From Eubacteriales bacterium (GTDB lineage Bacteria > Bacillota > Clostridia > Oscillospirales > CAG-272), in contig JAZQKI010000048.1 of NCBI GenBank assembly GCA_045542075.1, positions 41,036-105,035 on the forward strand: a DNA stretch of 64,000 nucleotides, written 5' to 3'. The notes under the pieces are model-generated. The model was not told the DNA's origin. It did no database searches and saw only the letters and a program-made list of their open reading frames with translations. Both the position numbers and the translations under genes were made by a program. The stretch's first letter is position 1. Every line of letters begins with the position of its first letter. Of the stretch, positions 8,310 to 25,173 are shown piece by piece.

Positions 8310-9164
8310 TCATCCCCTGCCAAAAAAATCCCACAAAAGCACCGATGCCGCCACTGCCGCATTCAGGGATTCCACTCCGCTTTGCATGGGAATATACAGG
8401 GTTGAGTCACACGCCTGTATAGCCTCGGACGTTAGCCCGTGTCCCTCGTTGCCTATAAGTATGCAGTCGGAGGGATGGATGCTTGCCTGTCCGAGCCTTT
8501 GAGCCCTGTCATCAAGCGCGGCGGCAAAGACTCTCCTTCCGTCCGCCTGAAGACATTTTATCGCCTCGGGGATACTGTCTACTCTGTCTATCCTCATTCC
8601 GAACAGTGTTCCCATTGACGCGCGTACCGCCTTGGAGTTGTAAATATCCGCGCAGTCAGCGCTCATAATTATTTTGTCCGCGCCCATCGCCGCGGCGCTT
8701 CGAATTATAGCGCCGATATTCTGCGGGTCTCTTACAGATTCAAGCAAAAGCACCCTTTCGCCATCCGCCGCAAGCCGCTCTGAAAAATTTTTTCCTTCAT
8801 TATTTATTTTAACAAATTTATGAAATTTGTCAATATATTTTGCCACACATATTACGCCCTCGGGAGATTTTTCGGTAGAGATCTTCTCAAGGACCGACTG
8901 CTTTACGGGTATAATTCTGCAAAAAATATCCTCGCGTCGAAGGTTATACGTCTGAAATGCCTTCTCGAAAACACTCTCATATTTCTCGTCTGACACGAGC
9001 ACATATTCCAGCTCAACACCGCGAGATATCGCCTCGCAAAGCAGCTTTACACCGTCAAAGCGGAAAAGACGAGAGCCGTCACGACGTTTTTTTTCGTCCA
9101 GCATTCTCGCCTCGGAAACGTATTTATTTTGTCCCGACGTGATGATTTCTTCAAAAAAATCCAT
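8310..9164 (-). CDS. TrmH/SpoU family RNA methyltransferase
   Basis: DPQNIGAIIRSA, LIGNEGHGL, IPMQSGVESLNAAVAASV; start placed at the second Met of the ORF (uncertain). Confidence 0.92.
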   Translation of the reverse strand: MDFFEEIITSGQNKYVSEARMLDEKKRRDGSRLFRFDGVKLLCEAISRGVELEYVLVSDEKYESVFEKAFQTYNLRREDIFCRIIPVKQSVLEKISTEKSPEGVICVAKYIDKFHKFVKINNEGKNFSERLAADGERVLLLESVRDPQNIGAIIRSAAAMGADKIIMSADCADIYNSKAVRASMGTLFGMRIDRVDSIPEAIKCLQADGRRVFAAALDDRAQRLGQASIHPSDCILIGNEGHGLTSEAIQACDSTLYIPMQSGVESLNAAVAASVLLWDFFGRG

Positions 9165-22203: not shown

Positions 22204-22232
22204 AAAGCCTTCCCTATGCGGAAGGCTTTTTT
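22204..22232 (+). terminator. Intrinsic terminator after rluB
   Basis: aaagccttcc-ctatgc-ggaaggcttt followed by T-tract. Confidence 0.85.
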
Positions 22233-22261
22233 GTCTTAAAATGTCGCAATTTTATAAATTG
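22222..22261 (+). repeat. 40-bp direct repeat, left copy
   Basis: aaggcttttttgtcttaaaatgtcgcaattttataaattg, identical to 23190-23229. Confidence 0.95.
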
Positions 22262-22264
22262 AAA

Positions 22265-22286
22265 CTCCGCACCTTGCGGTGCGGAG
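22265..22286 (-). terminator. Terminator of cassette lipoprotein gene
   Basis: ctccgcacc-ttgc-ggtgcggag hairpin immediately after the stop codon. Confidence 0.7.
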
Positions 22287-22291
22287 AACAC

Positions 22292-23092
22292 TTATTTAGT
22301 TGTTTTTGTTAAAGTTAGGGATTCAACTGAATTGTTGTAAAACATGTCTCCTTCAATGCAGTCAAGAATTAAGGTGTCATTGTTAGATAAAGCGCCGGAA
22401 GCATATAAGATTAGCTTTTTTTCTTGGCTACTTATATCATAGACCTTTATTCCTGGACCATATCGCAACAATTCAATCTCTATCGGTATTGTTTTGTCAT
22501 TGGCATTCCACTCGCCAACATTGGTACTGGGAGAATACCAAAATGAGTACTCCAGTGACTGATATACTGTGGAATCATCGTAATTGATAAAATCTTTCCA
22601 TTGAGAAGAAGTGATAGAAAAAGCAATGCTTTCTTGATAGGATGTCTCAACTTTCGAGGCGTAGATAACATCGTTAGTCGATTCGCTTGTAATATGAATA
22701 ACGCCTTTTTCTCGATCGGGATTATGCAGGATAAATGATTCTGAGTTTATATTTTCAGAGATACCGAGACCCAAAAACAATTTTGCAAAATTGGAATCAT
22801 TCTCGCTACTATAGCGAACCAAACGATATGCGTTTGCATTTTTCACAGGATAGTAAATGCTACGTATTGTAACCGGTGAGCTACCAGTACTGGTCACCCA
22901 TTCGCCTATGCCGCTATCCATAAGAAAATGTATATATTCTGTGTCGGATATTGTTATTACAACATAGTTAGTATCTTTGCTCCACTGGAATACATAACCT
23001 TCTCCACGATTTATTCCTTTGCATGATGACATTGTAAATACAATGAAAAGAGATAATAAGACTAATATGAATGAACTTCTAATTTTTTTCAT
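22292..23092 (-). CDS. Hypothetical lipoprotein (266 aa), AT-rich
   Basis: GGAGG RBS, MKKIRSSFILVLLSLFIVFTMSSC signal peptide II with lipobox. Confidence 0.8.
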   Translation of the reverse strand: MKKIRSSFILVLLSLFIVFTMSSCKGINRGEGYVFQWSKDTNYVVITISDTEYIHFLMDSGIGEWVTSTGSSPVTIRSIYYPVKNANAYRLVRYSSENDSNFAKLFLGLGISENINSESFILHNPDREKGVIHITSESTNDVIYASKVETSYQESIAFSITSSQWKDFINYDDSTVYQSLEYSFWYSPSTNVGEWNANDKTIPIEIELLRYGPGIKVYDISSQEKKLILYASGALSNNDTLILDCIEGDMFYNNSVESLTLTKTTK

Positions 23093-23150
23093 AGGTCCTC
23101 CCAAATTACTTTTGCAGATTAGTCACAATGATGGCTTTACTCACAATTAA

Positions 23151-23370: not shown

Positions 23371-24153
23371 GTGGAATACACAACAAAAATACTCATAGCC
23401 GACGAAAATAATTCCCAGCGTCACATTTTGAGGGAGGCTCTCTCACACGCTGGATGCAGATACATAGACGAGGCAACAAACGGCGAGGACGCGCTCGCGC
23501 TAATCAACCGTACCCACCCCGATGTGCTGATAGCGGATATATGGCTCTCAAAGCTGGACGGACTTTCCCTCGTCCGCAGTATCAAGTCAGGCAGAGACCG
23601 TGCACCTATCATAATTATGACCTCGCCTATTTCAAACCAAAATATATTCGTTCAGTCGCTTGAGGCAGGCGCGGACGTATGCCTTATCAAGCCTGTAAAC
23701 ACCTCAACTCTCATTCAGCACATAGAAAACCTGCTCAAAAAGAGAAAAAACTCCCTCTCCCCCGAGTTTTATAACACAAAGCCCGTAGCAGACGAGACAC
23801 CCGACATTGAGGCGCAGGTCACACGCATCATCCACCAGATAGGCGTTCCCGCGCACATCAAGGGCTATCAGTACCTCCGCACGGCAATCCTCCTCACTAT
23901 AAATGACTCCGACATAATAAACTCCGTCACCAAGGTCCTCTACCCATCGGTTGCTAAGAAATATCAGACTACAACCAGCCGCGTGGAGCGTGCGATAAGA
24001 CACGCCATTGAGGTCGCGTGGGACAGAGGCGACGTGGATACGCTGAATTCCTACTTTGGATATACCATTCAGAACAACAGAGGAAAACCTACGAATAGCG
24101 AGTTTATCGCCATGATCGCGGATAATTTGAGACTTAAATACAAGTTGTACTAA
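23371..24153 (+). CDS. spo0A: Sporulation master regulator Spo0A
   Basis: Receiver domain plus [14 protein letters not shown]...[28 protein letters not shown]...[17 protein letters not shown]; GTG start with GGAGG RBS. Confidence 0.98.
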
Positions 24154-24156
24154 TAA

Positions 24157-24277
24157 GCCCTCCCCTGTGTAAGGGGAGGTGGCGCGCGAAGCGTGACGGA
24201 AGGGTTGTAAAATATGGACATTTGGCTGAAACAATCCCTCAGTCGCTCTGCGACAGCTCCCTTTACACAAAGGAGCC
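24157..24277 (+). repeat. Hairpin-rich element, family 1 (unit 1)
   Basis: ctcccctgtgtaaggggagg-tggc...ggaagggttg / caatccctcagtc...cagctccctttacacaaaggagcc with imperfect terminal inverted arms. Confidence 0.8.
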
Positions 24278-24356
24278 GACATGAACACCTGCGAACCCAA
24301 AATTTATTGCCATGATCGCGGATAATTTGAGACTTAAATACAAGTTGTACTAATAA

Positions 24357-24476
24357 GCCTCCCCTGTGTAAGGGGAGGTGGCACGCGAAACGTGACGGAA
24401 GGGTTGTAAAATATGGACATTTGGCTAAAACAATCCCTCAGTCGCTCTGCGACAGCTCCCTTTACACAAGGGAGCC
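24357..24476 (+). repeat. Hairpin-rich element, family 1 (unit 2)
   Basis: Near-identical copy of 24157-24277. Confidence 0.8.
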
Positions 24477-24580
24477 GACGTGAACACCGGCGAACCCAAA
24501 ATTTATTGCCATGATCGCGGATAATTTGAGATTGAAATATAAGCTATATTGAATAACCCCTATATCCTATGATAATATGA

Positions 24581-24622
24581 AAAAAATCCCGACAGATTCT
24601 ATGTCTGTCGGGAATAATTTTT
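24581..24622. terminator. Bidirectional terminator between spo0A array and RAYT
   Basis: tcccgacaga-ttctatg-tctgtcggga with A/T flanks. Confidence 0.8.
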
Positions 24623-24835
24623 ATATTTACAAAGACAAAAACTATTCTTCTGTATATAATTCATCGTAGTACCAGCGTATTGGGTTTTCATAAATGTATT
24701 TCTTTATTTTATCATAATCTTCTCTACCTCGCACAACGTGATCATAAAATCCCCTTTGCCATATATTTACCCCATATTCCTTATTGCAAAACCGTTTGAG
24801 TGTAGATACAAATTGCGACACGGCTGAATGCTGCT

Positions 24836-24864
24836 TTGTAGGGGGCGACGTCCTCGACGCCCCG
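24836..24864 (+). repeat. GTAG-type REP inside RAYT CDS
   Basis: ttgtagggggcgacgtcctcgacgccccg. Confidence 0.9.
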
Positions 24865-25004
24865 TCTCCCGACACAAACAGCATGATATGAATATGGTTT
24901 GGCATAATCACGTATTGGTCAACCGTTACGTTGTTATAGAAATCACTTAATTGGTTTATGTATTTCTCAGCTACTTTACCGTATGGCAATAACTCCACAC
25001 ATTT

Positions 25005-25033
25005 CGGGGCGTCGAGGACGTCGCCCCCTACAA
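25005..25033 (-). repeat. GTAG-type REP inside RAYT CDS (inverted copy)
   Basis: Exact reverse complement of 24836-24864. Confidence 0.9.
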
Positions 25034-25173
25034 TATGTGATAAGGTTTTCCGGCGGCCTTCCGTACATATTGTTATAAAATATGCGCCCACTGTTGCGTA
25101 ATCAAAATTTTTTAATCTTGTAGGTTTTCTTTTCGGTAATTCTTTTTCTTTATCCATTTTCATCACCCGCATT

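Follow-up and report, generated by a model that had tools for sequence, protein, structure and literature searches.

Entry into sporulation in Firmicutes is governed by spo0A. We report that the 3' end of this gene is present three times in tandem in a 64,000-nt stretch of DNA from an Eubacteriales bacterium (GenBank assembly GCA_045542075.1, contig JAZQKI010000048.1, positions 41,036 to 105,035 of the forward strand; "the window" below means the whole of this stretch), and that arrays in which extra spo0A tails alternate with small non-coding cargos occur in 6 of the 39 species of its genus. Judged by comparison with related genomes, the repeated unit in the window consists of a foreign spo0A tail, a dispersed hairpin repeat and a degenerate spo0A flank. 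On balance we lean towards the view that modules of foreign tail plus cargo entered by recombination in the spo0A tail, most likely through host homologous recombination, and that the second unit in the window came from unequal crossover.

The array at the end of spo0A

The window's genome is called G000 below, other G numbers denote genomes or species, and L numbers denote loci or contigs; P is the working, gene-proximal spo0A tail and D a displaced downstream copy of it. The array and its surroundings comprise the following features:

23371-24153, + strand: spo0A coding sequence, 260 amino acids (from the open reading frame list)
24083-24153, + strand: P copy, the working tail, with native flank (24083-24108), core (24109-24132) and tail X (24133-24153; stop codon 24151-24153)
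24159-24277, + strand: hairpin element copy 1, a dispersed palindrome of 119 nt with five helices; TAAG(C) stands before it at 24154-24158
24278-24353, + strand: D1 copy, a junction resembling a phage attachment site (attP-like), with pseudo-flank (24278-24308), core (24309-24332) and tail X (24333-24353)
24358-24476, + strand: hairpin element copy 2, about 97% identical to copy 1
24477-24552, + strand: D2 copy, the displaced native tail, with pseudo-flank (24477-24507), core (24508-24531) and tail Y (24532-24552)
24587-24613, no strand assigned: bidirectional intrinsic terminator, the first terminator-like site 3' of spo0A on the + strand

A 24-nt core, gccatgatcgcggataatttgaga, occurs three times (24109-24132, 24309-24332 and 24508-24531) with periods of 200 and 199 nt; Tandem Repeats Finder gives a 199-nt period, 2.2 copies and 95% matches, and a chance origin of this 24-mer three times at a fixed period is ruled out. 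In copy 1 the in-frame native flank (KPTNSEFI) leads into the core and tail X, cttaaatacaagttgtactaa. The pseudo-flank of copy 2 is degenerate spo0A sequence, an in-frame TGA followed by TPANPKFI (tga aca cct gcg aac cca aaa ttt att), and this copy again ends in tail X; copy 3 has the same pseudo-flank but ends in tail Y, ttgaaatataagctatattga. Tails X and Y encode the same peptide, LKYKLY-stop. An initial annotation, made from the letters of the window alone, had described just this arrangement: three cores at these periods, a native/X, foreign/X, foreign/Y layout, an upstream foreign flank that is itself a degenerate spo0A homologue (TPANPKF vs KPTNSEF), an intact Spo0A C-terminus, and two hairpin-rich units that differ by 6 substitutions and 1 indel. 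All of this holds on re-examination. The gene carries a response-regulator receiver domain and Spo0A_C (Pfam, on the identical gene in L064, described below), and the C-terminus of the protein, unchanged in the window, is invariant across 29 species of the genus. A genome-wide search found matches to the pseudo-flank nowhere in G000 except at the spo0A locus, and the window's list of open reading frames (ORFs) contains none of 60 or more amino acids between the tail copies. The hairpin, a strong one, begins 6 nt (unit 1) or 4-5 nt (unit 2) past the stop codon, and since the first terminator-like site on the + strand is the one at 24587-24613, the array probably lies within the 3' untranslated region (UTR) of spo0A.

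The genus comprises 39 GTDB species, all known as metagenome-assembled genomes (MAGs) of uncultured gut Clostridia of Oscillospiraceae type. The closest relatives of the window's species, G006 (98% amino acid identity) and G030 (96%), have no insert, and an ordinary terminator follows their spo0A stop codon. Counted in nucleotide differences, tail Y stands close to the working tails found in G030 and G006 (2-3 nt) and farther from those of G010 (8 nt). For tail X the distance is 2 nt to the G010 tails and 4-6 nt to those of the close relatives, although the spo0A N-domains of G010 and the window share only 75% identity. The proposals that X is foreign, that Y, which is contiguous with the local downstream DNA, is the species' own displaced tail, and that empty sites with Y-like tails should be found in close relatives are thus all borne out.

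An independent metagenome assembly of the same species, L064, is 97-99% identical to the window over 5.8 kb and carries a single unit with the same junctions: P with tail X, hairpin element, then pseudo-flank, core and tail Y. The L064 unit has the consensus base at all 7 positions that separate units 1 and 2, so the one-unit form would be the basic state and the two-unit form a later tandem duplication, produced most simply by unequal crossover between tail copies, as the initial annotation had also suggested. Descent of all copies from one local sequence, as in a simple tandem duplication, holds for unit 1 versus unit 2 only; tails X and Y differ by 7 silent changes and have different phylogenetic affinities.

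Identity is also discordant along spo0A as a whole. G000 and G010 are 75% identical in the N-domain and 84-85% in the C-domain and tail; between G006 and G030 the value falls from 91% in the N-domain to 75% over the last 75 nt. Such discordance suggests that spo0A is a mosaic formed by recombination between species (G000, G006, G030, G438 and G010). A profile of synonymous divergence along the gene revealed no crossover point.

Arrays and cargos in other species

When the 39 species were screened with a degenerate spo0A-tail pattern, more than one tail copy was found in 7, one of which was discounted, leaving arrays in 6:

G000: 3 tails, the window array
G010: 4 tails and 3 cassettes, in the order P, hairpin element (inverted), D1, promoter-bearing mini-gene, D2, TAAG plus window-type hairpin element, D3, terminator
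G027: 2 tails, cargo a mini-gene
G016: 2 tails, cargo a mini-gene
G035: 2 tails, cargo a hairpin element
G438: 2 tails, cargo a hairpin element
G023: 2 tails on two contigs that both have the gene body; an artefact, not counted

A cassette is here a foreign copy of the last 50-75 nt of spo0A with a small non-coding element of about 115-140 nt after it. The third cassette of G010 (tail ...caagttgtactaa, TAAG and hairpin element) matches that of the window. Metagenome contig L194 shows the end of a hairpin element followed by a tail from position -66, and in L202 a tail that starts at -69 comes after a cargo longer than 400 nt; 43 of the 45 metagenome contigs with at least 300 nt downstream are plain. 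Duplications in L091 (a scaffold gap) and G367 (a contig overlap) proved to be artefacts. Partial tails were also seen: an 18-nt partial repeat, aaatacaagctatatcga, abuts the spo0A stop codon in L042 (G031), and a short remnant, ctgctgaaatataagccgtatgaa, lies about 30 nt past the tail copy of L194. Both may be scars of lost cassettes.

The phenomenon appears confined to this gene and nearly so to this genus. We found no tail arrays in 80 loci of other genera, no extra spo0A tail away from spo0A in the 39 genus genomes, no spo0A tail in the viral contigs of IMG/VR, and no junction like that of the window's pseudo-flank in public metagenome contigs. Self-BLAST of the window's genome for short-range direct repeats revealed no other protein-gene tail with such a duplication; the best candidate (C46:37014-37328) is intergenic and three others are adapter artefacts. 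Across about 400 genomes of the order the tail is almost always single, the exception being G421, which belongs to a different family. Three of its contigs (C12, C19 and C32; L065-L067) begin at the same spo0A tail plus about 60 nt (positions 1-110), and then one runs into TrkH/TrkA, one into a resolvase and a histidine kinase/LytTR pair, and one into unknown genes; on one contig a gene for a resolvase-type serine recombinase lies 340 nt from the tail. Large inserts may use the spo0A tail in G421, although these contigs are suggestive only.

The cargo in the window belongs to a dispersed repeat family. The window's genome (1.64 Mb in 48 contigs) was searched with 24154-24308 as query. Query positions 1/6-124 match about a dozen further sites at 73-81% identity, often on both strands, and the final 31 nt (the pseudo-flank, positions 125-155) match the spo0A locus only; in all, about 13 full copies align over 119-123 nt. 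The repeat folds into five helices (a pair of 8-bp hairpins at the ends, a pair of 5-bp hairpins further in and one 10-bp long-range stem), with compensatory double changes in 10 of the 36 pairs. Two modules of about 50 nt in inverted orientation make it up (hairpin, TGGC, hairpin, purine tail), and the 3' arm of hairpin 1, reversed, equals the purine tail past hairpin 2; this mirror repeat, compared in two variants, co-varies in G010. Its ends read CCTCCC... and ...GGGAGCC, TAATAG or TAATAAG stands before most copies and TTT after them, and the usual position is just past a stop codon. None of the roughly 12 other sites in the genome has a duplicated gene end, and no short flanking (target-site) duplication is evident around the copies. 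The cargo in the window, and only the cargo, is a dispersed non-coding palindromic repeat comparable to miniature inverted-repeat transposable elements (MITEs), bacterial interspersed mosaic elements (BIMEs) or paired repetitive extragenic palindromes (REPs) of the REPIN type. In the initial annotation the 200-bp unit might have been self-contained and always at spo0A; this did not hold up, as the 119-nt hairpin core is dispersed and other species have other cargos. Only the spo0A-derived flanks are unique to the locus.

Two further placements of the hairpin element were recorded. At G000 C4:53400-54350, just past an apparent RNase P RNA gene and its terminator, three elements follow one another with a 251-nt period, each after the same leader of about 70 nt ending in TAATAG, and the unit of leader plus element recurs on C31 and elsewhere on C4. 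In L041 (G022) the element directly follows TAA-TAG past the spo0A stop codon with no duplicated tail, which is the layout expected of a cassette donor.

Over all arrays the cargos fall into two classes, the hairpin repeat in either orientation and mini-genes on the strand opposite spo0A, and 8 of the 9 measure 113-143 nt, the cargo of L202 being the exception. Five cassettes have precisely one whole hairpin repeat as their cargo; it begins 3-4 nt past the stop codon and ends 4-8 nt short of the displaced copy. The mini-genes have a TTGACA-17-TATAAT promoter, matching the consensus at 12 of 12 positions and directed toward spo0A; after it come a closed, multi-branched structure, predicted over about 65 nt, and a U-run (z -2.9 to -4.9). 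No Rfam family was found for any cargo when the window region and the five other arrays were searched. In G016 the mini-gene forms a discrete element of about 108 nt, and the genome has a second copy of it (88% identical) between yceD and a mrp/ParA-type gene, where there is no flanking duplication. Over 109 nt the G027 cargo shares 79% identity with a segment inside an ORF for an LPD3 polyvalent protein in G003. That segment (L224, G003:C92, 1330-1440) is structured like the G027 cargo, lies in frame within an LPD3 ORF of more than 788 amino acids and keeps the closing stem with different bases. Either the segment is itself a mini-element, in frame, or the G027 cargo came from it. Taken together, the genomic distributions indicate that both cargo classes are small dispersed elements and that the tail duplication is a property of the spo0A site and not of the cargos.

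Origin of the arrays

One clue to the origin of the arrays is how their tails differ. Over the last 17 codons, P and D copies in the six species are separated by 7-12 silent differences and no replacement, apart from the farthest tail of G010 and a lost stop codon in G010 D1; random species pairs differ over the same codons by a mean of 10.7 silent changes, also without replacement. The farthest G010 tail, D3, is decayed (A>D, R>M, K>N and loss of the last Tyr), and the other G010 tails are not. Because a non-coding copy diverging in place would gain mostly replacement changes, the silent-only divergence argues that the two tails of each genome are alleles that served as working tails in different lineages and were joined recently. 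The tail affinities, together with the continuation of the distal copy in G027 and G016 into downstream DNA common to insert-free relatives, identify the distal copy as native and the proximal one as foreign; for G438 this assignment is ambiguous at the flank level. The longest identical runs between P and D are 24 nt (G000), 23 nt (G010 P-D1), 26 nt (G027) and 33 nt (G438), whereas random species pairs have a median run of 12 nt and a 95th percentile of 23 nt. Four of the eight adjacent P-D pairs fall in the top 5% or so, for which the binomial chance is about 4 in 10,000, and such long runs point to recombination or conversion inside the core.

In the reading we favour, a cassette would enter by recombination inside the conserved tail of spo0A; the crossover would lie in the 24-nt core, which is now the same in every copy. 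The product would be native flank, core and tail X, then the cargo, then pseudo-flank, core and tail Y; the second unit would follow later through unequal crossover between tail copies. The engine would be host homologous recombination acting on DNA from related species, with the body of spo0A as a long left arm and the downstream tail copy as a short right arm, so that new cassettes would land beside the working gene and push older tails outward. Directly seen are the polarity of the arrays, whose outermost tail is the oldest, and a copy number that is not constant within a species; no recombinase is encoded in or beside any array. We prefer homologous recombination because the core lengths suit it, the crossover points seem variable and no tail-bearing partner was found. 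Two related ideas were dropped: the core as an attachment (att)-like site at the nucleotide level, since its silent-site codon entropies are ordinary across the genus, and an element-borne chassis shared by the cassettes (CCCACAAATAGCGAG likeness of the displaced 5' parts), since the mean D-D distance (8.3) is no smaller than the mean P-P distance (7.9).

Several observations sit uneasily with this reading. No identical P-D run in G035 exceeds 9 nt, so that a crossover by homology is not visible there. The displaced copies all start 63-75 nt before the stop codon and the units measure 180-213 nt despite unrelated cargos, a uniformity that plain homologous recombination does not predict and that hints at a site-specific step or a common origin; the displaced copies of different species nevertheless do not cluster together. 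Only spo0A is affected among the protein genes of the genome, though the hairpin repeat is present at about 12 other sites, which argues for some specificity. Nor does the reading account for the way in which a cassette acquires spo0A sequence on either side of the cargo. Shared cassettes are only about 79-83% identical between species, and vertical inheritance of old cassettes with differential loss is a possible alternative to transfer. Since plasmids and phages are often missing from MAGs, the lack of an integrase counts for little, and the three-copy form is known from one metagenome assembly alone.

The initial annotation had proposed site-specific integration. The layout fits, but no integrase-bearing parent or circular form was found, none of the 39 genus genomes has a full-size element at spo0A, and homologous recombination explains the layout at least as well. 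A specific version would have minimal elements of about 200 bp, bearing attP and excising as circles, inserted by a dedicated recombinase supplied in trans by a phage, plasmid or integrative and conjugative element (ICE). We regard it as possible but unlikely. It would account for the constant left boundary (-63 to -75) and unit size (180-213 nt) across unrelated cargos, the polar arrays with the newest cassette beside the gene, the restriction to spo0A and the G035 pair that lacks a homology run, and it could draw on the G421 contig with its serine recombinase gene 340 nt from a spo0A tail. Yet it must accommodate arrays with no recombinase in or beside them, the lack of any tail copy away from spo0A in the genus genomes or in IMG/VR viral contigs, a core without the extra silent-site conservation that a protein-binding att site might show, and identical cores of 18-33 nt, which exceed what site-specific overlap needs. 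Quite unlikely in our estimate, but much more notable than homologous recombination if true, would be a dedicated insertion system in which an unseen recombinase acts at one set position some 70 nt ahead of the stop codon, non-coding cargos travel between species with a replacement spo0A tail, arrays grow in a polar, integron-like manner, and the cargo rewires the spo0A 3' UTR while the protein is untouched.

[quoted passage not shown] An attL-element-attR structure with tandem accretion is just that of ICE/IME/CIME composites (PMC5704250), the LPD3 polyvalent-protein gene matched by the G027 cargo (79% over 109 nt) is of a kind typical of mobile elements, the L202 cargo exceeds 400 nt, and G421 suggests large inserts at the spo0A tail. 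We nonetheless judge this improbable: random deletion would not yield remnants so uniform that 8 of 9 cargos measure 113-143 nt, in five cassettes the cargo is a single whole hairpin repeat and nothing else, that of G016 is a discrete element also present at a second place in its genome, and no occupant of intermediate or full size was found at the spo0A site in the 39 species. A purely local history, in which a short tandem duplication of the tail arose, small mobile repeats landed between the copies and the copies then diverged, is strongly disfavoured by the silent-only divergence, and we give it little credence. The hairpin repeats do often stand locally in tandem with their spacers duplicated too, as at G000 C4:53723-54348 with its 251-nt period, the window's second unit is itself a tandem duplication, and G031 has its 18-nt partial tail repeat at the stop codon. 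In-place decay should, however, look like the oldest tail of G010 and not like 7-12 silent and no replacement differences in six species; the affinities of the two tails point apart, X to a distant species and Y to the nearest ones; and several independent insertions into a linker of about 10 nt would be required. An assembly artefact, with the second unit or the whole array a mis-join of strain variants, seems to us very improbable indeed. Three untrimmed adapter inserts with 87-100-nt perfect repeats do exist elsewhere in the assembly, and the junction of foreign flank, core and tail X was seen in this assembly only. There is, however, no adapter at the spo0A locus, the units differ at 7 positions less than 50 nt apart, the junction of pseudo-flank, core and tail X needs real reads at k >24, the one-unit form was assembled independently from another sample, and five other species assemblies share the architecture, among them multi-cassette arrays with distinct cargos in G010 and others.

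Among known systems the closest parallel is the accretion of CIMEs in tandem at the 3' ends of genes or tRNAs, such as ICESt1 and its CIME at fda and IMEs at tRNA-Lys, rpsI and other genes (PMC5704250). Like the window array, CIMEs have the 3' end of the target gene as direct repeats around an insert that leaves the gene intact; the insert supplies the working gene end and displaces the native one, no integrase lies inside, and units stack in tandem. CIMEs, however, are kilobases long and consist of decayed ICE or IME genes, whereas the spo0A inserts are about 115-140 nt (in 200-bp units) and hold one dispersed hairpin repeat or one mini-gene resembling a small RNA gene. The spo0A repeats (50-75 nt, with silent-only differences) also look, unlike those of CIMEs, like whole alleles of other species, and neither a cognate integrase nor a full-size relative was found. 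Descent by decay from an ICE or IME was not borne out, the likeness of the G027 cargo to an LPD3 gene segment being the only hint of it, and the literature we searched does not report spo0A as an attachment site. The known scheme is thus att-flanked tandem accretion at a gene's 3' end; the arrays depart from it in the 200-bp scale, the type of cargo, the lack of an integrase or full-size relative and the spo0A target.

Other comparisons are more partial. REP/BIME/REPIN and "triplex-type" hairpin repeats are, like the window cargo, multi-copy and non-coding, with co-varying stems and a place just after stop codons, but they are not known with a duplicated gene end. Integron cassettes resemble the spo0A cassettes in combining a coding piece with an imperfect palindrome (57-141 nt), entering next to the gene and lacking an internal recombinase. 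At spo0A what codes is a substitute end for a single fixed gene and not a free-standing ORF, and some cargos are non-palindromic; an integron array was rejected, with neither IntI nor attI beside the array and no RYYYAAC/GTTRRRY boxes at the element ends. IMEX elements at dif and the pdif modules of Acinetobacter plasmids are small modules moved by a recombinase they do not encode. They share with the spo0A cassettes the character of non-autonomous modules at a fixed site, but at spo0A there is no recognisable dif-like site and the repeated unit is coding. A diversity-generating retroelement was set aside (no reverse transcriptase gene in the window; differences in all bases, all silent), and repeat duplication of the CRISPR kind and long target-site duplication were rejected on their defining features.

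The probable effect of the insertions, as read from the positions of the cargos, is an altered spo0A 3' UTR, with a strong stop-proximal hairpin in the window and a strong promoter into spo0A in other species. REP hairpins within about 15 nt of the stop codon reportedly lower protein output in E. coli (Liang, Rudd and Deutscher 2015). Tiny non-coding modules have landed time and again at the 3' end of spo0A, sparing the protein and changing the sequence after the stop codon, and the stop-proximal hairpin, or the convergent consensus promoter, could tune sporulation in uncultured gut anaerobes. Tandem accretion, known for kilobase islands with integrases, also occurs at a scale of 200 bp with no visible recombinase, which raises the question of whether a conserved gene end alone can be a portable homology arm that moves non-coding DNA between species. 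In practice, the extra tails should not be annotated as spo0A pseudogenes or assembly errors.

Neighbouring genes and other observations

The genes around spo0A encode a pseudouridine synthase, a lipoprotein, a protein resembling REP-associated tyrosine transposases (RAYT) and a HAD hydrolase; none is an IntI-type tyrosine recombinase. The RAYT-like gene is the feature nearest the array:

24642-25172, - strand: RAYT/IS200-like ORF, scoring 21.5 bits with Pfam Y1_Tnp (cut-off 23) and 62.5 bits with NCBIfam REP_Tyr_transpos (cut-off 80)

A role for it as the cassette enzyme is not supported, as both scores are below threshold and the gene is absent beside the arrays of G010, G027, G016, G035 and G438; it is missing from G006 and G030 as well as G438, and probably lies outside the cassette system. 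The ORF contains a perfect 29-nt inverted pair of GTAG-type REP hairpins (24836-24864 and 25005-25033), which translate as GDGASRTSPPT and IVGGDVLDAP.

Upstream of spo0A, L064 is without the lipoprotein cassette of the window (22210-23096; ORF 22292-23104, - strand) and has an RDD-family gene in its place; a 40-nt repeat at 22222-22261 occurs once in L064. Three contigs of G000 (C25:49575-49659, C27:101-184 and C45:88-171) carry an insert of about 85 nt, AAGTCGGAGGCCAAGCGGTCTTAGGAAGACAA-(10 nt)-CAACTCCTTGGCTCACAGAACGACATGGCTACGATCCGACTT, between perfect direct repeats of 87-100 nt. We take this insert to be the MGI/DNBSEQ adapter pair, and the three sites to be assembly artefacts from untrimmed adapters. 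Finally, at G000 C48:6898-8741 an ORF ending in ...TYTHLDAQSKR, a C-terminus like that of tyrosine integrases, is followed by partial tRNA-like repeats at 8313, 8503 and 8685, which are a classical signature of accretion at a tRNA gene.

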